Assembly: GCA_965261735.1 (NCBI GenBank)
Contig: OZ253470.1
Coordinates: 2,112,001 to 2,176,000 of the forward strand
Direction: 5' to 3'
DNA length: 64,000 nt
From: Alphaproteobacteria bacterium
GTDB lineage: Bacteria > Pseudomonadota > Alphaproteobacteria > SHVV01
Translations under genes and position numbers: made by a program
Shown: in pieces, positions 43,228-58,441 of the stretch
Numbering within the stretch: position 1 is the stretch's first letter
Layout of the letters: every line of letters begins with the position of its first letter
Notes under the pieces: generated by a model
What the model was told of the DNA's origin: nothing
Database searches by the model: none
The model's input: only the letters and a program-made list of their open reading frames with translations

Positions 43228-44677
43228 GGTCGTGTCCCAGGACGTGGTGTAGGAGTTGTTGGAGCCTCTGTTAGCTGTGGGTAGGCGGCTTGCCGTAGCG
43301 ACCGCCGAGAGTCTGGCGTAGGCAAGCCGGCTATCCACAGCGGAGGCCATCGCGGTTCCGGTTTAGGGTTGGGCTAGTGCAAACCAACCTGACCCGAAGG
43401 AGAACCACGATGACCCAGGACATGATGACCCTGCGCGCGCTTTTGGAGAAGAACTCCGATGCCGATCTGCTTTGCGAGATGATCGGCTTCACGGCCGAGC
43501 GGCTGATGGCACTGGAGGTTGAGGGCCTGACCGGCCGCCGGGCACGGCGAGCGCTCGGCGGATCGTATCACCCATCGCAACGGCTACCGCGACCGGTCCT
43601 GGGAGACGCGGGCCGGCACGGTCGAGCTGAAGATCCCGAAGCTGAGGAAGGGAAGCTACTTCCCGGGCTTCCTGGAGCCGCGGCGGATGGCCGAGAAGGC
43701 GCTGGCTGCGGTGATCCAGGAGGCCTACATCCAGGGGGTGTCGACCCGCTCGGTCGACGATCTGGTTCAGGCGATGGGGATGTCGGGCGCCTCCAAGAGC
43801 CAGGTCTCCAGGCTGTGCGGCGAGATCGACGATAAGGTCAACGGCTTCCTCGATCGACCGCTGGAGGGCGACTGGCCCTATCTGTGGCTCGACGCCACCT
43901 ACGTGAAGGTGCGCCAGACCGGACGCATCGTCTCGGTCGCGGTGACCGTGGCTGTGGCCGTCAACGACCAAGGCCGCCGCGAGGTCCTGGGCGTGGCGAT
44001 CGGCGCGTCAGAGGCCGAGACCTTCTGGACCGAGTTCCTGCGCTCGCTGGCCCGGCGCGGGCTGCGCGGCGTGAAGCTCGTGATCTCCGACGACCACAAG
44101 GGCCTGAAGGCCGCCGCGACCCGGATCCTCGGCGCCACATGGCAGCGCTGCCGCGTGCACTTCGCCCGCAACCTGCTGGCCCATGCCGGCCGCCAGGGCC
44201 GGCGCGTCGTCTCCGCCTTCGTCGCCACCGCCTTCGCCCAGGAGGACGCCGACAGCGCGAAGGTCCAGTGGCGCCAGGTCGCCGACCAGCTCAGGCCCAA
44301 GGTGCCCAAGCTGGCAGTTCTCATGGACGAAGCCGAGCACGACGTCCTCGCCTACATGAGCTTCCCCAGGGAGCACCGCCAGAAATTGCACTCCACAAAC
44401 CCGATCGAACGGCTCCATGCCGAGGTCAAGCGTCGCACCAACGTCGTCGGTATCTTTCCCAACGAAGCCGCCATCACACGGCTCGTCGGCGCCATCCTTC
44501 TCGAGCAGAACGACGAGTGGGCCGTCTCAAGGAGATACATGACGCTGGAATCCATCGCTCCGCTGAGCGATGGTGTCCCCATCACGCTGCCCACCGTGGC
44601 AGCCTGAACGTCCCGGCCCTACCCGCCGGGAGCCGCGTAGAGCGCAACGCTCTTACACCACTCCGCGGGACACGATC
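43228..44677 (+). mobile_element. IS256-family element; transposase 43410-44607 with +1 frameshift near 43536
   Basis: TIRs GGTCGTGTCCC...TGGTGTA / TACACCA...GGGACACGATC; [44 protein letters not shown]; no matching target duplication. Confidence 0.92.
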
Positions 44678-48639: not shown

Positions 48640-49023
48640 ATGGCAGCAGCGAAAGATGAGCGGCCGGCGCTCGCCATCGGCCATGTGAGTTTGCCGGTGA
48701 GCGACGTGCCTGCCGCCACCGATTTCTTCGTCAAACAGGGCATGCGCTCGATCCACCCGGACGAGCATTTCGCCGTCCTCGAGCTCCGGGGCGGCACCCA
48801 TCTCGTACTGCGCGAAACCGCGGAGCCGGCGGCGGCCGGCACCAAGGCGCCGTTCGACCTGATGGTGGACGACGTGAAAGCGGCCCGCGCCACCTGTGTG
48901 ACGCATGGTATGAGCGTGTCCGAGATCGAGACCGGGCGCATCCATTCCTGGTTCACGCTGGGCGGGCCCGACGGCTACGAGATCACCGTCACCTCGTCGC
49001 ACGTCTCCAACCAACCGGTGTAG
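48640..49023 (+). CDS. VOC/glyoxalase family protein
   Basis: IGHVSLPVSDV, ELRGGTHLVL, FDLMVDD, PDGYEITV. Confidence 0.8.
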   Translation: MAAAKDERPALAIGHVSLPVSDVPAATDFFVKQGMRSIHPDEHFAVLELRGGTHLVLRETAEPAAAGTKAPFDLMVDDVKAARATCVTHGMSVSEIETGRIHSWFTLGGPDGYEITVTSSHVSNQPV

Positions 49024-49040
49024 CGCGAGCCGATAACCTC

Positions 49041-50549
49041 ATGGTCGACGCCCGCCAGGTCCTTGCGGCCGTCGGGCTCGACGCGGCGGCGCTCGATGCG
49101 GGCGCGCTTGTCGTTCGCTCACCCATCGACGGTTCTTTGATCGCGAGGCTCGCGCCCGATGCGCCGGAGCAGGTCGGCGCAAAGATCGTGCGCGCGCAAG
49201 AGGCCTTTCTCGCCTGGCGCGGGGTGCCCGCACCGAGGCGCGGCGAGCTCATCCGCCTGTTCGCCGAGGAGCTGCGCGCGGCCAAGGACGATCTCGGTGC
49301 GCTGGTCACCCTCGAGGGTGGCAAGATCGGCGAGGAGGGCCGCGGCGAAGTTCAGGAGATGATCGACATCTGCGACTTCGCCGTCGGCCTGTCGCGCCAG
49401 CTCTACGGCCTGACCATCGCGTCCGAGCGCCCGCATCACCGCATGATGGAGACCTGGCATCCGCTCGGCGTGGTCGGCGTCATATCGGCGTTCAACTTCC
49501 CCGTCGCGGTATGGTCGTGGAACTTCGCGCTCGCCATCGTGTGCGGCGATTCGGTGGTGTGGAAGCCCTCGGAGAAGATCCCGCTGACCGCGCTCGCGTG
49601 CCGCGAGATCTTCGCGCGCGCGTTGACTCGTTTCGGTGATGCGCGGAATGGGCTGCTCGAAATCGCGATCGGCGATGCGGGCGTCGGCGAGGGCCTCGTC
49701 GACGATGCGCGCGTCGCCCTCGTCAGCGCCACGGGGAGCACGCGCATGGGCCGGGCCGTCGGGGCGCGGGTGGCGGCGCGCCTGGGGCGCTCGCTGCTCG
49801 AGCTCGGCGGCAACAACGCCATGATCGTCGCCCCCTCGGCCGACCTCGACCTCGCGGTCCGCGCCATCCTGTTCAGCGCCGTCGGCACCGCCGGCCAGCG
49901 CTGCACGACGCTGCGGCGCCTCATCGTCCACAACAGCATCGCCGATGCCCTGCTCGCCCGCCTCAAGCGCGCCTACGCCGGCATCGCTATCGGCGATCCG
50001 CGCGCGCCGGCGACGCTCGTCGGCCCCCTGATCGATGGGCTGGCGTTCGAGGCCATGGAGGAGGCGCTAGCGCGCGTTACGGACGAGGGCGGCGCGGTGT
50101 TCGGCGGCGGGCGCGTTCTCGCCAACGAGTTCCCCGACGCCTGGTACGCCGCGCCCGCGATCGTCGAGATGCCGGCACAGACGGACACGGTACGCGCCGA
50201 GACCTTCGCGCCCATTCTCTACGCGATGAGGTATGGCTCGCTCGATGATGCGATCGCGATGCACAACGACGTCCCCCAAGGGCTCGCCTCGTGCATCTTC
50301 ACCACCGACGTGCGCGAGGCCGAGACGTTCCTCTCGGCCGCGGGCAGCGACTGCGGCATCGCCAACGTCAATATCGGCCCTTCCGGCGCCGAGATCGGCG
50401 GCGCCTTCGGCGGCGAGAAAGAAACCGGCGGCGGCCGCGAATCAGGCTCGGACGCCTGGAAGGCCTACATGCGCCGCGCCACCAACACCATCAACTACGG
50501 CCACGACCTCCCGCTCGCCCAAGGCATCACGTTCGGGGCGGAGGAGTAG
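49041..50549 (+). CDS. ALDH7-type aldehyde dehydrogenase (piperideine-6-carboxylate dehydrogenase-like)
   Basis: GEVQEMIDICDFAVGLSRQLYG, ISAFNFP, LELGGNN, AGQRCTT, GAEIGGAFGGEKETGGGRESGSD. Confidence 0.93.
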   Translation: MVDARQVLAAVGLDAAALDAGALVVRSPIDGSLIARLAPDAPEQVGAKIVRAQEAFLAWRGVPAPRRGELIRLFAEELRAAKDDLGALVTLEGGKIGEEGRGEVQEMIDICDFAVGLSRQLYGLTIASERPHHRMMETWHPLGVVGVISAFNFPVAVWSWNFALAIVCGDSVVWKPSEKIPLTALACREIFARALTRFGDARNGLLEIAIGDAGVGEGLVDDARVALVSATGSTRMGRAVGARVAARLGRSLLELGGNNAMIVAPSADLDLAVRAILFSAVGTAGQRCTTLRRLIVHNSIADALLARLKRAYAGIAIGDPRAPATLVGPLIDGLAFEAMEEALARVTDEGGAVFGGGRVLANEFPDAWYAAPAIVEMPAQTDTVRAETFAPILYAMRYGSLDDAIAMHNDVPQGLASCIFTTDVREAETFLSAAGSDCGIANVNIGPSGAEIGGAFGGEKETGGGRESGSDAWKAYMRRATNTINYGHDLPLAQGITFGAEE

Positions 50550-50606
50550 TGGCCCGGTCGAACCCTCTGAGATGTGCTTGGCTTCGAAGGGATACTCGGG
50601 CCGCCA

Positions 50607-50633
50607 GAGTCTCCTTTGACCGCAAACGGACGT
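50607..50633 (+). repeat. 27-bp imperfect palindromic site 1
   Basis: GAGTCTCCTTTGACCGCAAACGGACGT; aligns without gaps to sites at 52003, 52882 and 55624. Confidence 0.6.
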
Positions 50634-50737
50634 TGGCGGGCCAGCGAAAAGGCAGGCTGTTTCCGCGCCCTCGCCCTGGATGTTTTGCGACCGAAGTTGC
50701 GGTGTCCTTGATTTGGCCAAGAGTGGGATGGGATCGC

Positions 50738-51820
50738 ATGTGGCCCAATCGTGAATTGCTCGACCTCATCGGCATCGACTTGCCGATCATCCAGGCGCCC
50801 TTGGCGGGGGCAAACGGCCCGGCTATGGCGATTGCGGTGAGCGAGGCCGGCGGGCTGGGCTCGCTCCCTTGCGCCATGCTCGACGCAGCTAAGGCGCGCG
50901 CCGAAATGGGCGTCATCCGCGAGCAAACGACGAAACCCCTGAACGTCAACTTCTTCTGTCACAAGCCGCCGGCGCCCGACCCGGACCGCGACGCTGCATG
51001 GAAGCGGCATCTGGCCGCCTACTACGTGGAACTCGGACTGGATGCGTCCGCTTCGGCACCAGCCGTCAATCGGGCCCCGTTCGACGAGGCTATGTGTGAG
51101 GTCGTTGAGGACCTCAAACCTGAGGTCGTGAGCTTTCAGTTCGGGTTGCCGGCAAAACCGTTGCTTGGCCGCGTCAAGGCAGCGGGCTGCCGCGTGCTCG
51201 GCTGCGCCACCACGGTCGAGGAAGCCCGCTGGCTTGAGGACAATGGTTGCGGCGCCGTCATCGCGCAGGGCTTTGAGGCGGGCGGGCATCGTGGCATGTT
51301 CCTGACCGACGATATCGCGACTCAAGCGGGGACCTTCGCCCTGGTGCCGCAGGTCGTCGATGCCGTGAAGGTACCGGTAATCGCCGCCGGAGGCATTGCC
51401 GACGGGCGTGGCGTCGCGGCGGTCTTCGCGCTCGGCGCGGCAGGTGCCCAGATTGGCACGGCCTACCTTTTCACCCCGGAATCCCTGATCTCCGACCTTC
51501 ACCGGACGGCTCTCGGGGCGGCCCGCGACGATGGCACCGCCGTAACCAATCTGTTCTCCGGTGGACCGGCGCGCGGCGTGATGAACAGGATCATGCGCGA
51601 GATCGGGCCCATGTCCGACCTGGCGCCGGCGTTCCCGACGGCCGGCAGCGCGTTGGCGCCGTTGAAGGCGGCTGCCCAGGCCCGAGGGGCGAGCGACTTC
51701 ACCAACCTATGGTCGGGGCAGGCCGCCGGCCTCTGCTACGAAACCAATTCCGGCGATCTCACCCGCCGGCTGGCCGAGGACGCGGCCCGGCGGCTCCAGG
51801 AGCTAGCCCTACCCGGTTGA
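50738..51820 (+). CDS. Nitronate monooxygenase family flavoprotein
   Basis: PIIQAPLAG, AVSEAGGLGSL, AQGFEAGGHRG, VIAAGGIADGRG, LWSGQ. Confidence 0.92.
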   Translation: MWPNRELLDLIGIDLPIIQAPLAGANGPAMAIAVSEAGGLGSLPCAMLDAAKARAEMGVIREQTTKPLNVNFFCHKPPAPDPDRDAAWKRHLAAYYVELGLDASASAPAVNRAPFDEAMCEVVEDLKPEVVSFQFGLPAKPLLGRVKAAGCRVLGCATTVEEARWLEDNGCGAVIAQGFEAGGHRGMFLTDDIATQAGTFALVPQVVDAVKVPVIAAGGIADGRGVAAVFALGAAGAQIGTAYLFTPESLISDLHRTALGAARDDGTAVTNLFSGGPARGVMNRIMREIGPMSDLAPAFPTAGSALAPLKAAAQARGASDFTNLWSGQAAGLCYETNSGDLTRRLAEDAARRLQELALPG

Positions 51821-52002
51821 CCGGGGGCCTGACGTTCCGCGCCGTGATGCTTTCATGCTTGGATTGGCAATTCCCAGGGGCGCCCACCCGCGACGGCGGA
51901 AAGCGAGGCCGATAAGCCCTACCAATAGGGACGGATCGAGGCCGATGCCGGCGATACATTCGGACAACAGTCGCGCATATTGACGGGTCGTGAGGCAGCG
52001 CT

Positions 52003-52029
52003 GGTTTCCCTTTGACCCGAAACGGACCA
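52003..52029 (+). repeat. 27-bp imperfect palindromic site 2
   Basis: GGTTTCCCTTTGACCCGAAACGGACCA. Confidence 0.55.
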
Positions 52030-52048
52030 GCCCGATGGCGATATCAAC

Positions 52049-52777
52049 TTAAGACCCGGTCGCTATTTGCAGTTTGCCTTTGACGCCATGCTTTTTGATC
52101 AGCTCGGCTACCAATCCACTCTCTTTGGCTTCCTGGATAAACTGTTCGACGAAGGTTTTGAGGCCGGTGTTCTCCGGTTTTGTACCAACGGCCTGGAACA
52201 CCGATGTAAAGCGCCCGTCCAAAACGCGCGAACCGGGCAGGGTTTCGGCATTTTCCTTCAATGCCGGAACCAGGCCCGCCAGCGCATCCAACTTCTCCGT
52301 CACGAACAAGTCGATTGAACCAGCAAGACCCTTCGCGCGGTGCAGTTCCGCATTCTTCAACGTGCGCGACAGGTATAGGTCGTAAGCGGCGCGGTCCGAT
52401 ACTGCGATCCGCACACCCGGCTGGTCCACCTCCTCGATGGATTGAAAAGGCGAGTTTGCGGGAACAAGATACGTGGCCTCGATCTCAACATAGGCGTCAC
52501 AGAAGGCAATCGACTCGGCGCGCTTCGGCTCCACCGCGATCAACCCGATATCCCATTCGTCCCGTTCCACCGCATCAGCAACTTCGCCCGGTGTGGCGAA
52601 GGTAACGTATGTCACAGCGACGCCAAGGCGCTCAGCGATCGCCGCCGCCAGATCCGGTGCGACCCCTTCCGGATCGCCCGTGGGACTGGTGCCCGTCACC
52701 AGTAGGATGTTGCCGAGATTGATGCCGACGCGCAGCGTACTGGGATCGGTGAGTTCGGATAGGGCGTCTTGGATCAT
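52049..52777 (-). CDS. Family-3 (polar amino acid type) substrate-binding-domain protein without signal peptide
   Basis: LRVGINLGN, GVAPDLA, YVEIEATYLV, DQPGVRIAV, AYDLYLSR; AGAGG RBS before ATG 52777. Confidence 0.85.
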   Translation of the reverse strand: MIQDALSELTDPSTLRVGINLGNILLVTGTSPTGDPEGVAPDLAAAIAERLGVAVTYVTFATPGEVADAVERDEWDIGLIAVEPKRAESIAFCDAYVEIEATYLVPANSPFQSIEEVDQPGVRIAVSDRAAYDLYLSRTLKNAELHRAKGLAGSIDLFVTEKLDALAGLVPALKENAETLPGSRVLDGRFTSVFQAVGTKPENTGLKTFVEQFIQEAKESGLVAELIKKHGVKGKLQIATGS

Positions 52778-52881
52778 GGTCGGCCTCTTGCTCAAACTTA
52801 AAGGGACAATCGGTTGAGAACGCGCGCGATCCGTCAACGGAAATCGACGCCCCCCGGGCGGGTTGTCCCAAGGCAGCGGCG

Positions 52882-52935
52882 ATGTCCGCTCGTGCCAGAA
52901 ACGGAAATCAACAGCGGCCGGAGCAAACGGACGTT
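52882..52935 (+). repeat. 27-bp imperfect palindromic site 3 plus an extra right half-site
   Basis: ATGTCCGCTCGTGCCAGAAACGGAAAT (52882-52908); GCAAACGGACGTT at 52923-35 is identical to 50622-34. Confidence 0.62.
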
Positions 52936-53027
52936 TGGGGGAATTACTTCGAGAACAAGGGCTTACGGATCACCTAACCCCCTCGCGCGATCGCGAGTAA
53001 TCTAGACTTTGGGAACCGGAGCAAGAA

Positions 53028-54011
53028 ATGTTGTTCGGCATCAACTTGGGCGGCGGCAACCTTTCCCATGAATCCCGTGTGGAGGCTCTGGAAGGCCGTT
53101 TGGAAAAATCGCGCCTGGCCAAGCGGTACGGATTCCACTCCCTGTGGAGCGGGGCCGGCTACCTGAACAACGACTTCCATCCCATGCTCTTGCTGTCCAG
53201 GGCGGCGGCGGAGGCTCCCGGCCTGGAGTTGGGAATGGTCGCACTGCTACCTTTGTACCATCCGGTGGAGGCCGCCGAGCAAATTGCCACGCTGGACGTT
53301 ATCAGCGGCGGCAAGTTCGTGCTGGCGCCGGCCTTGGGCTGGCGAGACTTCCAGTTCAACGCCTTCGGAATCCCCAAGGGCGAGCGCCTCTCTCGGTTCC
53401 GGGAGGTAAGGGAGGTCATGAAGCAGCTCTGGACCGAGAGCCGGGTTACCCACCACGGTCAGCATTTCCAAATGGAAGACGTGCCCGGCGGCGGAACCCC
53501 GTTGCAGAAGCCCTACCCAAGGATGTACCTGGCGGCCAACCAGGACCGGGGCGTGGTTCGGGCGGCCCGGCAGGCCGATGGCTGGCTGATCAGCTCCCGG
53601 GCGACTTTGACCACCCTTCGCCAGCAGGTGCCAGTTTACCAGGAAGCCGCGAGGGCGACGGGCAGGGAAGGCTACATGTCCGCCTGGCGGGAGATGTTCA
53701 TCGCGGAAACTCGGGAAAAGGCCATAGAGATAGTCCGACCCCATGTGGAGCGGTTATACCAGGACCGGGCCGCCTCGGGCCACAGCCAGGAACTGCCCGC
53801 CGCCGACCGCATCGACGTTCCCTTCGAGCAGGTGTTGGACGGAAGGTTCATCATTGGCAGCCCTAGCGAGTGCGCCAACGAAATCAAAAAATACCAGGAG
53901 TTGGGCGTCCAGGAGCTGATATTACGCTGCCAGTGGCCCGGCATGCCCAACCAGGACTCCAACAGGGCGGTGGAAATGTTCGGCCGCGAAGTGCTCCCCC
54001 GGTTCGCGTGA
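53028..54011 (+). CDS. Luciferase-like (LLM class) flavin-dependent oxidoreductase
   Basis: GFHSLW, LLPLYHPVEAAEQIATLDVISGG, VTHHGQHF, VVRAARQADGW, GREVLPRF. Confidence 0.9.
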   Translation: MLFGINLGGGNLSHESRVEALEGRLEKSRLAKRYGFHSLWSGAGYLNNDFHPMLLLSRAAAEAPGLELGMVALLPLYHPVEAAEQIATLDVISGGKFVLAPALGWRDFQFNAFGIPKGERLSRFREVREVMKQLWTESRVTHHGQHFQMEDVPGGGTPLQKPYPRMYLAANQDRGVVRAARQADGWLISSRATLTTLRQQVPVYQEAARATGREGYMSAWREMFIAETREKAIEIVRPHVERLYQDRAASGHSQELPAADRIDVPFEQVLDGRFIIGSPSECANEIKKYQELGVQELILRCQWPGMPNQDSNRAVEMFGREVLPRFA

Positions 54012-54092
54012 GGTCCGCAACTCTCCCTCCTACCCGGCTGTATCGATCTCTACGATTGGGCGTGAACGTCCTAGCCCCTGGACGCAGTTTGG

Positions 54093-54896
54093 CTAGAAGC
54101 TTTTCAAGAAGTTTGTCATAAGCCGGCAGGTCTCGTCGGGCTGCTCAAACCCGTAAAAGTGACCGCAGTTCTTGATTATCTTCATGTAGGAGTTGGGTAT
54201 GGCTTTGTTCAGGCCCTCCGACATCTCCACAGGGGTGCGGGCGTCGTCTTCGCCAACGATTATCAGTGTGGGATGCCCGATTTCGCCCAGCTCCGGACCG
54301 AAATCGGATCGCGTGGCCTTGATCACGTCGGCGTAAGACTTGGGGTCGTTTCGGAGGAGGGTTTGCCGTAGCTTCTCCACCGCCTCGGGTTTGTTCTGAA
54401 CACTATGCGGGCTGTAAGCGCCCTTGCTGAACTCGAAGGTCTTTTCTACGATCTCCTCGATACTGGCGCCCTCTTCGGCAAGCCTTCGCCGTGTCTCGAA
54501 CCCCGAGCGGTCCATGGGGGTGGAGGTGGGAAGCGGGCTTCCCGAGCCGAGCAACATGAGATGGCTGACCATCTCGGAATAGCGCAGGGCAAACTTCATT
54601 ACCACCATGCCTCCCAATGACCATCCAGCCAGAGCAGCCTGCTCGAGGCCCAGTTTCCCCATCAACCCAGCCAGGTCGTCGGCCCATAGGTCGTCGGACA
54701 AGGGAACCTGGGTCGGCCTGACCGTCTCGCCAAAGCCCCGCATGTCGTAGGCGTATACCCTGAAGTCCTTGCTCAGTAACGGAATCATATCCTCGAAGCT
54801 CTGGGCGTCGGCTCCGGTGCCATGCACCAAAATCAACGGTTTGCCCTCTCCGCTCACCTCGTAATGTACGTTGCAGTCATTGACCTGTGTGAACAT
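54093..54896 (-). CDS. Alpha/beta hydrolase (3-oxoadipate enol-lactonase-like)
   Basis: LILVHG, YDMRGFG, GWSLGG, IVGEDD, CGHF; AGGAGG RBS. Confidence 0.88.
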   Translation of the reverse strand: MFTQVNDCNVHYEVSGEGKPLILVHGTGADAQSFEDMIPLLSKDFRVYAYDMRGFGETVRPTQVPLSDDLWADDLAGLMGKLGLEQAALAGWSLGGMVVMKFALRYSEMVSHLMLLGSGSPLPTSTPMDRSGFETRRRLAEEGASIEEIVEKTFEFSKGAYSPHSVQNKPEAVEKLRQTLLRNDPKSYADVIKATRSDFGPELGEIGHPTLIIVGEDDARTPVEMSEGLNKAIPNSYMKIIKNCGHFYGFEQPDETCRLMTNFLKSF

Positions 54897-55086
54897 GGTG
54901 CAGCCCTCCTTATGGTGTGGCCCATGGCCGCTCCAAAGATAAAGCGGTTCGGGCAGACGAGTCCTGGTTGGTCACCTCGTTCGTAGCGAGAGACCCGCGA
55001 CGCTGAAGCGCTGGCGCACTATCGGGCTTGTCACCATCTAGCTTGTGGTACCTCACGACCGCCCGGACGAATAAAGCGGGGCCAAG

Positions 55087-55563
55087 ATGTATGGCTTTGT
55101 CGCCCTTTGGAAGATCGATGATCCGGAACCTGCGCACCGGATGATCGCTAGGATTGCCCATCGCGGACCCGACGATGTGCGTGTGAGCCAAGCGCCGAAC
55201 GTCCCCGCCGCAATGGCCCACTGCCGACTGTCGATCATTGGCCTCGAGGACGGAACCCAGTCAATTTACAGCGCTGAGAACGTCCTGGTCGCCAATGGCG
55301 AGATATACAATTATGCCGACCTGCGGGCAATCCTTGGCGAAAGTGCCTTCGAGACCCAGAGCGATAGCGAGACCATTTCTGCACCTGTTCCGCAAGGACC
55401 AATTGCGGTGGGTCGCCAAAGTCGACGAGTCGGCGTGACGCAGCCCGTCGATCGCGGGAGCGAAGGCCGACTTTACGAGCGTCTCCTTCGCGAACAATAC
55501 CAGGATCCCGACCTCATCCTCGACAACGCTGGCACGTGGACGGCCGGGCGCGTTGCGGTTTGA
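55087..55563 (+). pseudogene. Asparagine synthase (AsnB-like) remnant with frameshift and large internal deletion
   Basis: IAHRGPD, AHCRLSII, ANGEIYNY, SDSETI; catalytic Cys2 replaced by Tyr; +1 shift near 55378; synthetase domain absent. Confidence 0.8.
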
Positions 55564-55623
55564 TGGCCGTTATTGCAGCCAACTATCGCGCTGTCCTGGT
55601 GTCGGCGTAGAGCAATCGCCGCA

Positions 55624-55650
55624 ATGTCGCCTTTGGCTAGAACCGGACAT
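55624..55650 (+). repeat. 27-bp imperfect palindromic site 4
   Basis: ATGTCGCCTTTGGCTAGAACCGGACAT with ATGTC/GACAT ends; lies where lower-GC DNA returns to host-like DNA. Confidence 0.62.
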
Positions 55651-55700
55651 CACCGGGCCACGCTCCGGCGCTAGATCAGTACGCCTCCAAGTCCGCGCCG

Positions 55701-56849
55701 CTACGCCTCGCCAAACACGCGGTCGAGGATGCCGTTGATGACGTGATGGATGGGCTTTTCCATTTCGGACATCGGGCCGGGGCGGTAGTTGGCCGACATC
55801 ATGCCATTCTGCAGCGAGGCCACCATGGTGCGGTCCTCCTCCAGAATGAACGCGATATTGTCGTGGTAGACCTTGATGCGCTCGGCCGCGTCCTCGCGCT
55901 CCAGGTGTACCTTCGGGAACAGGCTGTACATCAGGAGCTGGCACTTGTCGGGGCCGAGCGGCCATACCGTGAGCGGGCGGATCTGGTCGCTCCGCGCGAC
56001 GAGCTGCGTGTTGGGCTGCATATAGCCCATGGTGGCGAAGGTATCGGCCCTGTCCTCGAACCACGGCATCTTGCCGAAGCGCGTCTTGCCGTCGGGCGTC
56101 GCCGGGGCCGAGAGGTACTCGAAATTGATCATGCCGCGGGGCTTGAGCTTCACGTGGTCGGGGTCGGTGAAGGTGTGGGCGCCGAAGGTGCCGGCGTGGA
56201 GCACGCCGACGTGGTACATGTCCATCGCGTTCTCGACGAACAGCTTCCAGTTGCATGGCATTTCGAGCACCAGGCGGCCGGCGAGACCGCATTCCTCCAT
56301 ATGCAGGAAGGAGAACGCGTCGGCGAACGGGGCGATGAACTCCTCGAGGGACGGGGCCTCGTCGTCGAAGGTGACGAACACGTTGCCGGCCCAGGTGCCG
56401 AGCCGCAACGGCGCGAGGCGGCAGGTCTCGGGATTGAAGTCCTCGGCCTCGTCCATGTACGCGGCGCCGATGAGCTTGCCTTTGAGGTCGTAGTTCCAGC
56501 CGTGGTAGGGGCAGCTGAAGCTCTTGGCGTTGCCCGAGCCGGATGCGACCTCGACACCGCGGTGTGCGCACACGTTGGAATAGGCGTTGAGGCTGCCGTC
56601 GTGGTCGCGGGCGATGACGAGCGGCTCGTCGAGGATGCGGAAGGTCATGTAGTCGCCGGGGTTGGCGAATTCCTCCTCGCGCCCCATCAGGAGCCAGTCC
56701 TTCATGAAAAGCTTTTCCTTCTCGAGCTGCAACATCTCGTCCGAGGCGTACACGTAGCCCGGGGCGTGGCGCGCGGTGGCGAGCGGCGCCCTGATCTCGT
56801 GCAGGCCCTGGCCCGGTGCCTGGCCTGAGATTTCGTCGGTGAGTGCCAT
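55701..56849 (-). CDS. Rieske non-heme iron oxygenase alpha subunit
   Basis: NVCAHRG...SCPYHGW Rieske motif; NWKLFVENAMDMYHVGVLH; EED near the C-terminus. Confidence 0.93.
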   Translation of the reverse strand: MALTDEISGQAPGQGLHEIRAPLATARHAPGYVYASDEMLQLEKEKLFMKDWLLMGREEEFANPGDYMTFRILDEPLVIARDHDGSLNAYSNVCAHRGVEVASGSGNAKSFSCPYHGWNYDLKGKLIGAAYMDEAEDFNPETCRLAPLRLGTWAGNVFVTFDDEAPSLEEFIAPFADAFSFLHMEECGLAGRLVLEMPCNWKLFVENAMDMYHVGVLHAGTFGAHTFTDPDHVKLKPRGMINFEYLSAPATPDGKTRFGKMPWFEDRADTFATMGYMQPNTQLVARSDQIRPLTVWPLGPDKCQLLMYSLFPKVHLEREDAAERIKVYHDNIAFILEEDRTMVASLQNGMMSANYRPGPMSEMEKPIHHVINGILDRVFGEA

Positions 56850-56985
56850 GTGATCCTCTCGTAACCGGCCGCCCGCGAAGGCCAACCCCGTCGACCCCTT
56901 CGGCTCAGCTCATAGTATAACCCACTCGGCGGCGCATCGGGCGAGCCGTAAGCGTCGCACTGGCGAGCAATGGGGAGAAGAGCCG

Positions 56986-57378
56986 ATGAAGAAAGAAATC
57001 GTTCACGTGCCGACGATCAGCGACACCGAGGCCGAGGCCAACGTGCCGCTCTCGGCCGCGGTGAAGGCCGGTGGCTTCGTGTTCGTCTCCGGCCTCCCGC
57101 CCATCAACCCCGAGACCGGCGTGATCGAGCGGGCCGACATCAAGCGCCAGACCGAACTCTCGCTCGACAACCTCAAGGCCACGCTCGAAGCCGCCGGCTC
57201 GTCGCTCGATAAGGTCGTCAAGGCGACAGTCTATATCTCGAATGCCGCCTACTTCGACACCGTCAACGACATCTACCGCCGCTACTTCCCGCACGATCCG
57301 CCGGCGCGCACCTTCGTGACCGTGGGCTCGTGGCCGTGGCCCTTCGACATCGAGGTCGACTGCATCGCCATCGCCTGA
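56986..57378 (+). CDS. RidA family protein
   Basis: FVFVSG, LEAAGSSLDKVVK, PPARTFV, IEVDCIA. Confidence 0.92.
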   Translation: MKKEIVHVPTISDTEAEANVPLSAAVKAGGFVFVSGLPPINPETGVIERADIKRQTELSLDNLKATLEAAGSSLDKVVKATVYISNAAYFDTVNDIYRRYFPHDPPARTFVTVGSWPWPFDIEVDCIAIA

Positions 57379-57406
57379 GGCGCAGCCCTCGCCTGAGGCG
57401 CGGCCC

Positions 57407-58441
57407 TCAGAGGTAGAGCGGCTGGAGCTCGTCGCTGAGCTTGGCGAGATCGGGCGGGCTGACGATGGTGCCGTCGGCGACGACCTGCTCGCCGTCGACC
57501 CACAGCGACTGCATCTTGATGACGCCGTCGGGGTGGTTCTCGCCGCCGCCGGGCAGCCAGAAGGGCACGCCGAAGCCGCAGGCGTTGTTGCCCGTGGCGC
57601 GCATGTCCTCGACGAAGCAGGTGCCGGTCCAGCGCGCCACCGGATGGATGCCGTTCGTGAAGTGGATGATGTGGCCGTACTCGCCACCGCCGGCGCGCTT
57701 GAGCGCCCGGTCCATGAACCGGCGCTCGTTGCCGCCGCCGCTGATCGCTTTGATGCGGCCGTCGACCTCGACGGTGATCGGCTCGGGGAGCAGCGTGTAG
57801 TACTCGTGGAAGGCGGCCTCGATGACGACTTGGCCGCGCACCGACTCCGGGTCGGGCCAAAGCGCGACGACGCCGGGAATGGTGTAGTTGCCCGGGCTGT
57901 TGGCCTGGCGGCGCTTGGCGAACGGCGGCTCGGCGAGGCTGAAGGTCACGTCGGTACCGGCTTCATTGGTGATGTGGCACGGCGTACCCGGTGCGAGCAG
58001 CGCGGTGAAGCGCTCGAACACGGCGAAGAACTTGTCGAGGTCGGCCCTCCCGAACAGGCGGATCATCGATCCGGTCGGCACCTCGCCGCCCAGGAAATAG
58101 CGCACGCGCTGGGTCTTCATCGCCTCGTCGTGGGCGTGTGAACCCGCCACATACGGGTAGGCGAGGTCGATCCACACGTCGCAGGCGGAGACCACCGCGA
58201 CCAGCGAATCGGAGATATAAGGATCGGCGAGCCCGCCTTGGAAGGGGAGCTGTGGGATGACGAAGATGCCGGGCTTGGCGCCCGCGAGCACCGCGGCGTT
58301 GAGCACCGCGTCCGCGACCATTCGGTCGCCGGCGGTGTCGGTCGTGATGACGACGCTCTCGCCCTCCTCGACCGCCAGGAAATCCTTGACCAGCACGTTC
58401 GCGGCCCGCGCCAGTTCGGGGCCGATGGCAGATGCGTTCAT
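57407..58441 (-). CDS. NicX-like (2,5-dihydroxypyridine dioxygenase / M29-fold) metalloenzyme
   Basis: GESVVITTD, GTDVTF, IIHFTNGIHP, ENHPDG (HxD), SLWVDGEQVVADG. Confidence 0.65.
   Translation of the reverse strand: MNASAIGPELARAANVLVKDFLAVEEGESVVITTDTAGDRMVADAVLNAAVLAGAKPGIFVIPQLPFQGGLADPYISDSLVAVVSACDVWIDLAYPYVAGSHAHDEAMKTQRVRYFLGGEVPTGSMIRLFGRADLDKFFAVFERFTALLAPGTPCHITNEAGTDVTFSLAEPPFAKRRQANSPGNYTIPGVVALWPDPESVRGQVVIEAAFHEYYTLLPEPITVEVDGRIKAISGGGNERRFMDRALKRAGGGEYGHIIHFTNGIHPVARWTGTCFVEDMRATGNNACGFGVPFWLPGGGENHPDGVIKMQSLWVDGEQVVADGTIVSPPDLAKLSDELQPLYL

Follow-up and report, generated by a model that had tools for sequence, protein, structure and literature searches.

Four short sites in the DNA of an alphaproteobacterium, found at the borders of unrelated genes, can be assigned to a dispersed family of polar repeats. 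They lie within 5 kb of one another in a stretch of 64,000 nucleotides (the window) from Alphaproteobacteria bacterium (SHVV01; assembly GCA_965261735.1, contig OZ253470.1, positions 2,112,001-2,176,000), whose 5.03-Mb genome is referred to as G000. On balance, the sites are probably decayed units of a 28-bp repeat of the REP/BIME/NIME kind (repetitive extragenic palindromes, bacterial interspersed mosaic elements and Neisseria intergenic mosaic elements) that arrived together with two laterally moving gene blocks, one carrying a nitronate monooxygenase (NMO) gene and the other a solo solute-binding-domain (SBP) gene, the units being the joints of these blocks. As far as comparison with other genomes and contigs can establish it, the sites are members of the family, they have orthologous units elsewhere, the two blocks recur outside this genome, and blocks of near-identity end at units.

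The four 27-mers, all on the + strand, occupy positions 50607-50633 (site 1), 52003-52029 (site 2), 52882-52908 (site 3) and 55624-55650 (site 4). Their sequence, coordinates, common orientation and intergenic position were confirmed as given in an earlier note on this DNA, together with their gap-free alignment, in which 10 of the 27 columns are invariant. All four occupy spacers between genes with Pfam support, in the order aldehyde dehydrogenase (Aldedh), NMO, SBP_bac_3, luciferase-like monooxygenase (LLM) and, further on, a GATase remnant and a Rieske oxygenase; sites 2 and 4 lie between convergent gene ends, and sites 1 and 3 upstream of genes. Site 1 is a decayed A'-type unit (centre TGACC; 21/28 positions to the A' consensus), site 2 a decayed A-type unit (20/28 to the same consensus), site 3 a decayed C-type unit, and site 4 a C'-type unit (centre TGGCTA; 24/28 to the C' consensus) that is the best preserved of them. 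A half-site beside site 3 (52923-52935, +), also reported previously, is a 13-mer identical to 50622-50634 inside site 1 and represents the remnant of a further unit. To call these sites palindromes was generous, since only 10, 12, 18 and 14 of their 27 positions, respectively, are self-complementary and their folding as single strands does not surpass that of shuffled sequences (z -0.05 to -1.10), whereas clean units elsewhere do fold (-8.3 to -10.9 kcal/mol, z -3.9 to -7.5). For this reason the four sites are too decayed to be credible working sites, and they probably do nothing in this genome now.

The family, which is abundant in certain marine Alphaproteobacteria, has the consensus ATGTCCGCTnn-[TGACCC, TGGCTA or GC-rich core]-nnAGCGGACAT over 28 bases. 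Each unit consists of two sequence-conserved arms of 9-11 bp (ATGTCCGCT.. and ..AGCGGACAT) around a conserved, asymmetric centre of 6-7 bp, and three centre types can be distinguished, namely A, with GGGTCA (TGACCC in reverse complement), B, with a GC-rich stretch of 7 nt, and C, with TAGCCA (TGGCTA in reverse complement). The A and C units share an 11-6-11 layout (ATGTCCGCTTn / TGACCC or TGGCTA / nAAGCGGACAT), and the B centre has 7 bp. A clean example, ATGTCCGCTTATGGCTAAGAGCGGACAT, stands beside the NMO relatives of two alphaproteobacterial metagenome-assembled genomes (MAGs; L015 and L017). In an alignment of 41 clean units with the four sites, the arms, of which the right one is the better conserved, show no covariation: pairing amounts to 79.9%, shuffles giving 81.2%, and on either side the two positions that vary are paired as often as chance predicts. 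The lack of a pairing excess in sequence-conserved arms therefore indicates a design of two arms and an asymmetric centre rather than a compensated stem, and the proposal of a real, co-oriented family built in this manner was borne out.

Of 301 Alphaproteobacteria genomes sampled, 13 contain an exact TGTCCGCT-N6-12-AGCGGACA, as against 3 genomes for the same pattern written backwards. Copies with 7-bp arms number 92 in G228, 85 in G307, 23 in G097, 18 in G056 and 2 in G306, with none for the control, and the extremes of 2 and 92 fall inside one genus. Many copies are found at contig ends, as is usual for repeats. Units are nearly always intergenic, stand also between divergent genes (e.g., site 3 and L119 8538), keep the same orientation across 10-19 kb, and often form ordered tandem triplets; these A-B-C composites have a period of 45-46 bp and lineage-specific linkers of about 18 nt. 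In six unit-rich contigs with genes on both strands, the 32 units with a callable orientation all point the same way as the others of their contig, and 8 of the 9 multi-unit contigs of G097 are likewise uniform; one inverted unit pair was seen, in L167. A search of six loci against Rfam (E up to 1) returned no family covering the units. Literature searches gave only primer-type matches among the matches listed for the unit DNA strings, no paper for peptide strings of translated units, and nothing relevant to the units for RIME elements.

Matrices built independently of the window, from 16 A-type, 22 C-type and 21 B-type units at loci that all lie outside G000 and G002 (a genome of the same family and another genus), recovered the four sites. 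Five matches of at least 3 bits were obtained on both strands of the window, and four of them are sites 4 (31.0 bits), 3 (12.7 bits), 1 (10.3 bits, A matrix) and 2 (3.9 bits); the fifth, of 3.8 bits, lies at 2675, and the reversed window yielded one match. Across the whole genome, site 4 ranks fifth among the matches. Two further tests were built from the sites themselves, which makes them circular, though suggestive: a post-hoc pattern, TTTG.C...AA.CGGA, has five matches on both strands of the genome, of which three are sites 1, 2 and 4, and leave-one-out matrices place the omitted site 4th to 16th among about 10^7 positions. Judged by the independent scores, the resemblance of the four sites is not a chance one.

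Of the four sites, 1 and 4 belong with the NMO gene and 2 and 3 with the SBP gene. The NMO block opens with site 1, followed by a conserved 5' region (50634-50737, +) that aligns with G002 and is present in L015 and L017, by the NMO gene itself (50738-51820, +; Pfam NMO, E 1.6e-77), and by a G002-homologous 3' tail (51821-51925, +), in which the blastn match reaches 51895 and the alignment continues to about 51925. The gene of G002 is 90% identical in nucleotides and its neighbours are entirely different. Site 1 aligns column for column with a clean unit, CTGTCCGCTGTTGACCCTTAGCGGACAA, upstream of NMO in G002, and leftward of it the similarity fades. Site 4 and a 32-nt extension of it (55651-55682, +) match a C' unit of G002 that lies about 130 nt past the NMO gene there; the extension recurs at one other G000 unit (4,006,013, - strand). 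Relative to G002, the DNA from about 51.93 to 55.62 kb (3.7 kb, GC 0.60) is extra. Units were found at 4 of 80 NMO-relative loci (G002, L015, L017 and L053), all in Alphaproteobacteria MAGs with 83-91% amino acid identity, and the A and C units at these loci have one orientation relative to NMO; in G097, too, an NMO gene stands beside units. The nearest unit lies about 105 nt upstream of NMO, as opposed to about 230-260 nt in L017. NMO relatives that are 72-81% identical occur without units in Gemmatimonadota, Gammaproteobacteria and Actinomycetota, which points to wide lateral transfer of the gene independent of units. The labels of the MAGs that carry these more distant relatives are Longimicrobiales, Gemmatimonadales, Acidiferrobacterales, Mycobacterium and Rubrobacteraceae.

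The SBP block contains the SBP gene (52049-52777, - strand; Pfam SBP_bac_3), which encodes 242 amino acids from a conserved ATG set as the start codon by alignment, with site 2 located 20 nt 3' of its stop codon and, on the other side, a conserved 5' region (52778-52881, -; aligned with L157, L165, L166 and L174) followed by site 3 at the upstream end of the block. Relatives with 80-91% amino acid identity occur in metagenome contigs among differing neighbours, and units are present at 8 of 80 metagenome SBP loci, all of them among those with 80-87% identity. Site 2 is orthologous to a unit placed 13-23 nt past the SBP stop codon in L157/158, L159, L160, L165-169 and L174, and its sequence agrees with that of L157 in a run that ends ...GGTCCGTTTCGGGTCA; beyond this unit, the DNA differs in every context. 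Site 3 aligns with clean C units ahead of the SBP 5' region in L157, L165/166 and L174, and where the half-site lies here, L157 has a B unit, 18 nt away from its C unit. The neighbours of SBP differ among G000, L157, L159, L166, L168, L174 and L176, and include an ABC binding protein with a permease, an AsmA-like fragment, TctC with DUF302, a 3-hydroxyisobutyrate-dehydrogenase-like gene with a dienelactone hydrolase, a YadA anchor, and an integrase. All but one of the units at SBP loci have the opposite orientation relative to SBP, and given the single orientation seen at NMO loci, a co-oriented array can hold NMO and SBP only as convergent genes, which is the layout found in the window.

Contigs with SBP also provide the sharpest junctions. 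Between L166 and L165, 940 bp agree at 99.4%; the shared stretch opens with the first base of an A unit and closes 4 nt beyond the following one, and its flanks are unrelated. L166 and L168 share a stretch of 2196 bp with three genes, 99.8% identical and likewise running from unit to unit. Two downstream arrangements each recur in independent contigs (L166/167/168 and L165/169), and all four breakpoints seen are A-type units. The array of L166 has a unit every 0.5-1.4 kb, located 12-23 nt after three of its four stop codons and 107 nt after the fourth. The expectation that homology of the cargo genes would end at the sites thus held for the NMO and SBP blocks, which recur with orthologous units and with unrelated DNA beyond them, and failed for the third block.

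This third block (53028-55609) has no internal units and consists of the LLM gene (53028-54011, +), an alpha/beta hydrolase gene (54093-54896, -) and an asnB remnant of the GATase type (55080-55427 plus 55444-55596, +), all identified by Pfam. In nucleotides, the hydrolase gene has 90% identity with its G001 copy and 86% with that of G005, and the asnB pieces reach 74-80% against G001 and 73-78% against G006. Of asnB, the GATase part at the N terminus and the final 150 nt are left; compared with the intact gene on G001:C16, about 1 kb is missing. For LLM, no DNA match was found in the 41 relatives searched. Since these hydrolase and asnB copies are free of nearby units and their homology goes no further than the genes, block 3 is not a cassette. 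Moreover, the idea that the outer sites mark the edges of compositionally atypical DNA stands for site 4 and falls for site 1: the low-GC patch covers 51.9-55.6 kb (GC 0.60), the NMO block has a GC content of 0.663, near the genome's 0.657, and the compositional break meets only the right-hand edge at site 4. The aldehyde dehydrogenase gene (49041-50549, +) stands on the far side of site 1 and the Rieske oxygenase gene (55701-56885, -) past site 4; around the former, as a candidate for the ancestral empty locus, no synteny was found in G001 or G005.

The family is not confined to the window. The independent matrices find 44 distinct matches of at least 13 bits in G000, most of them degenerate, versus 3 in the reversed genome, and 41 of the 44 fall outside crude gene calls, as against 23% of random positions. 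At least eight copies belong to a derived C'-B' composite subfamily specific to G000 with shared substitutions, made of a C' unit ending GGAGGCGAAGT, an 18-nt linker and the B' unit ACGACCGCTCTACCCCCGAAAGCCGAC (G000:C1 positions 467476, 532046, 2906832, 3564733, 4510924, 4525645, 4545776 and 4548028). These copies imply that the repeat once spread in this lineage too, as a composite. The G000 units are of mixed orientation, in a genome with a weak, noisy GC skew. A blastn-short search of six spacers against the genome found no longer repeat. The nearly closed genome G310 has no clean units, and for an empty-site comparison the relatives of unit-rich genomes diverge too far (about 70% nucleotide identity), G097 being without a sister genome in the collection.

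The following mechanism would accommodate these results. The units were probably not made in G000 and would have come attached to the cargo, as [unit]-NMO-[unit] and [unit]-SBP-[unit]. In genomes with a live family, the intergenic units would serve as joints for blocks of one to three genes, exchanged by recombination from unit to unit, whether site-specific or by homology. The conserved arms are probably read by a trans-acting protein, with homologous recombination between units as a fallback, and the composite would be able to spread by itself as well. Recombination between units would preserve their polarity, which may be why NMO and SBP are convergent here. In short, the joints between exchangeable gene blocks are marked by the units and are probably produced by them as well.

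Several observations weigh against this explanation. The match of site 4 may be one between repeat copies, since its extension occurs twice in G000; nevertheless, orthology appears the more likely because two copies in 5 Mb are so few. Support from genome to genome is weaker than that from contigs, with G000 and G002 just 90% identical, and the sharpest junction data derive from short metagenome contigs that are possibly chimeric at 28-bp repeats. In contigs of the runs X1, X19, X2 and X3 over 49000-57500, joints at the sites were not seen, although contigs cannot show rare forms. The hydrolase and asnB copies of G001, G005 and G006, as well as an SBP copy in G001 (81% identical in nucleotides), have no units and their homology stops at the gene ends, so that SBP, hydrolase and asnB genes must also move without units. 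Composites with conserved linkers and the C'-B' subfamily demonstrate self-spread, like that of a REP or of a miniature inverted-repeat transposable element. Finally, no class of recombinase or transposase (Y1, tyrosine, IS110 or resolvase) was found beside the units.

A rival explanation is a true cassette system, in which the units are the core sites of a dedicated site-specific recombinase encoded elsewhere; it would excise and insert circles bounded by units and so build up co-oriented arrays, the window holding a dead one with three sites. We regard this as possible but doubtful. It would account for the 11-6-11 layout with sequence-conserved arms and two discrete, conserved 6-bp centres, for a strict polarity that is independent of gene strand, for 99%-identical blocks that stop at units with four of four breakpoints at A-type units, and for arrays such as that of L166, where units follow closely after most stop codons. 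However, no consistent adjacency emerged at 30 tyrosine-recombinase, 9 serine-recombinase, 11 IS110 and 4 Y1 loci. Units lie within 1.5 kb of 3 of the 30 tyrosine-recombinase loci, exact-armed units occur at none of the 11 IS110 and none of the 9 resolvase loci, and no unit of at least 10 bits was found at the four distinct Y1 loci of G097, G307 and G310, Y1_Tnp being absent from G000, G002, G228 (71% complete), G056 and G308. PF00589 has 41 matches in the G000 genome, none in the window and the nearest about 71 kb past its end. The co-occurring tyrosine recombinase or HUH nuclease that had been anticipated is therefore not consistently present beside the units. In addition, the units are scattered among a great number of contigs and loci instead of forming one array. 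Neither A-B-C triplets that lack cargo and have 18-nt linkers nor composites duplicated along with their linkers agree with simple excision and insertion, excised or joined forms are missing from the contigs of the four runs, and the arms are unrelated to those of the host dif-like site.

That site, CGCATAA TATATA TTATGGTAAAA (CGCATAATATATATTATGGTAAAA), is of the canonical type and single (G000:C1:4873764-4873783, -) and lies near the region of maximal cumulative GC skew; it was found with a search pattern for which the backwards control also gave one match at one mismatch. Sites of the dif and pdif type have 28 bp, with two 11-bp arms and a 6-bp centre, and pdif modules are flanked by sites in alternating orientation. 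The units resemble them in length and 11-6-11 layout, in having one arm better conserved (here the right one), and in bracketing small gene modules, but differ in that their arms are unlike the host site and in being co-oriented, chromosomal and dispersed. A pdif array was accordingly rejected, the four sites being all on the + strand and not alternating. An integron was rejected as well. The attC sites of integrons have 57-141 bp, in which R'', L'', L' and R' boxes and a GTTRRRY core are found, and they work in folded single-stranded form beside intI/attI. Co-oriented sites at the 3' ends of cargo genes and a cargo order shuffled between strains are common to both, whereas the sites described here have 27-28 bp with a single arm pair and no GTTRRRY, there is no attC architecture, and the window holds no integrase. 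Of the gene-capture array envisaged in the earlier note, the cassette-like outline is partly right, whereas neither its integron-like nor its pdif-like version was supported, and a family dispersed genome-wide with up to 92 copies, of which G000 retains 44 relics, also argues against one capture array.

Another proposal goes further, to an undescribed gene-shuffling system of marine Alphaproteobacteria with co-oriented 11-6-11 units of 28 bp, three centre types and a trans-encoded enzyme, whose NMO and SBP cassettes landed in a soil-type genome and decayed there. This is speculative and, as it stands, rather unlikely. If true, blocks of one to three genes would be cut and pasted between units, both within and between genomes.

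Units that are decayed repeats travelling with gene blocks find their closest counterpart in the NIMEs, in which 20-bp dRS3 inverted repeats flank RS segments of 19-214 bp, and whose units, as proposed in the part of the article drawn on here, bind a site-specific recombinase and promote exchange with incoming unit-bearing DNA (Bentley et al. 2007, PMC1797815). Both families have short palindromic units that are conserved at the ends and variable or asymmetric in between, in arrays with short spacers (about 18 nt here) that flank exchanged genes. The sequences are unrelated, the NIME hosts are Betaproteobacteria, and the length is 20 bp rather than 28 bp; furthermore, the family described here has three unit types in fixed order and strict co-orientation, no linked phage transposase, and inter-unit blocks that are whole genes with 99% identity in different contexts, as set against what that part of the article describes (PMC1797815). 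On this comparison NIMEs are the closest design, the likeness being one of design and not of homology.

A further rival takes the units as ordinary REP hairpins placed after stop codons, where they would end or stabilise transcripts, inherited with their genes and without a role in gene movement, the ends of homology being due to divergence or assembly artefacts. Units located 12-23 nt past stop codons at several loci, their intergenic position, and copy numbers of 2 versus 92 in one genus would agree with it, and a parallel exists in the three-palindrome REP of Bradyrhizobium in 3'-untranslated regions (PMC5082802, as far as the article was drawn on). Nevertheless, divergence does not explain blocks of 99.4-99.8% identity with wholly unrelated flanks, no compensatory change is seen in the stems, and units stand between divergent genes too, with an orientation that ignores gene direction, which makes this rival improbable. 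The resemblance to known REPs is itself partial. REPs of the CGTC type occur mainly in Alphaproteobacteria and 'apparently lack a dedicated transposase' according to the portion used here of Di Nocera et al. 2013 (PMC3733652), and REPs and BIMEs in general, as that portion presents them, share with the units a length of 20-40 bp, extragenic palindromes, a high, strain-variable copy number and mosaic clusters (PMC3733652). In contrast to what is described there, the units are without an unpaired GTAG/CGTC tag, their stem does not begin with A-T pairs and then a 4-5-nt loop, and they are tandem and co-oriented rather than head-to-head dimers (REPINs) (PMC3733652); neither GTCCGC nor GCGGAC appears in the portion compared of its text and 4 supplements, Figure 2 lying outside the comparison. 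A cognate REP-associated tyrosine transposase (RAYT, Y1) flanked by units was not found at the Y1 loci searched. Br-REP1 of Bradyrhizobium consists of three tandem palindromes in spacers and 3'-untranslated regions, and its abundance varies widely from one relative to another (Hahn et al. 2016, PMC5082802, in the part considered). Its likeness to the units is one of layout only: its sequence is CCGGAATCTCGAGATTCCGG, and the part of the text considered reports neither polarity nor block junctions and does not contain the units (PMC5082802).

Operators of one transcription factor over NMO, SBP and LLM would suit sites 1 and 3, which lie upstream of genes, and the conserved sequence of the arms, yet they are highly improbable in view of sites 2 and 4 between convergent gene ends, of the unit of L017 about 230-260 nt instead of about 105 nt from NMO, and of up to 92 copies per genome, tandem triplets and the degenerate copies found here. 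Chance likeness among GC-rich spacers, in favour of which pairs matching at 19/27 positions are expected in 64 kb by our own estimate and site 2 scores just 3.9 bits, is scarcely credible and refuted by the finding that four of the five window matches of independently trained matrices are the four sites, on one strand and within 5 kb, and that every site has an orthologous clean unit elsewhere.

For the window, the result is a modest one: the sites are relics by which two acquired blocks can be dated and delimited. Short palindromic repeats tend to be dismissed as genomic clutter, and the idea of NIME units as recombination joints has remained a hypothesis, as treated in the part of the source cited above (PMC1797815). 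Here, an unrelated family from another class presents what that idea predicts, namely a 99%-identical block in different neighbourhoods that ends at units, and the assembly of blocks appears to follow unit polarity rather than gene direction. If long reads confirm it, the family would be a convenient subject in which to find the enzyme and to explain the spread of single metabolic genes, NMO among them, from one lineage to another.

Further observations concern other elements near units. About 103 loci of IS256-family transposases (insertion sequences) in three subfamilies were counted in G000, one of them in the window at 43534-44604, and 11 of the 103 lie within 1.5 kb of a unit versus about 3% expected, which we read as co-location in accessory DNA. 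The unit-rich genomes G228, G307 and G097 contain large paralogous families of ~590-aa proteins built on a TPR body, some of them with a recognisable adenylate-cyclase or winged-helix domain at the N terminus; in G307, nearly all of 32 DNA matches are to the TPR paralogue, and copies adjoin unit composites at L119 3618-5603, L122 7688-9451, L123 4714-6516 and L124 5389-9863. In G228, one copy of an OmpA-gene paralogue pair (88% identity) stops at a unit composite and the other is without units, an arrangement that fits several readings. The truncated Y1 transposase gene of G307 (L138, about 560-700) is followed by two copies of a different palindrome, GTAAAGCCGCGACC...GGTCGCGCTCC, presumably its cognate REP. 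A P4-type tyrosine integrase gene (L176 564-1706, -) is located about 0.4 kb from SBP, and the unit after that SBP is decayed.

As regards the NMO region, the window is without about 30 nt between the conserved promoter region of NMO and its start codon, a stretch that is present in G002 (L002 1473-1500), and a near-identical strain in run X1 has 30 nt inserted behind 50724. About 0.7 kb upstream of the NMO block on the MarineAlpha3 MAG contig L015, a c-di-GMP-I riboswitch was detected (931-1013, -; 70.7 bits). A 151-nt contig of the sponge-metagenome run X2 is identical to 51906-52056, site 2 included, and other marine runs contain LLM, SBP, hydrolase and asnB pieces with roughly 4-12% differing letters.

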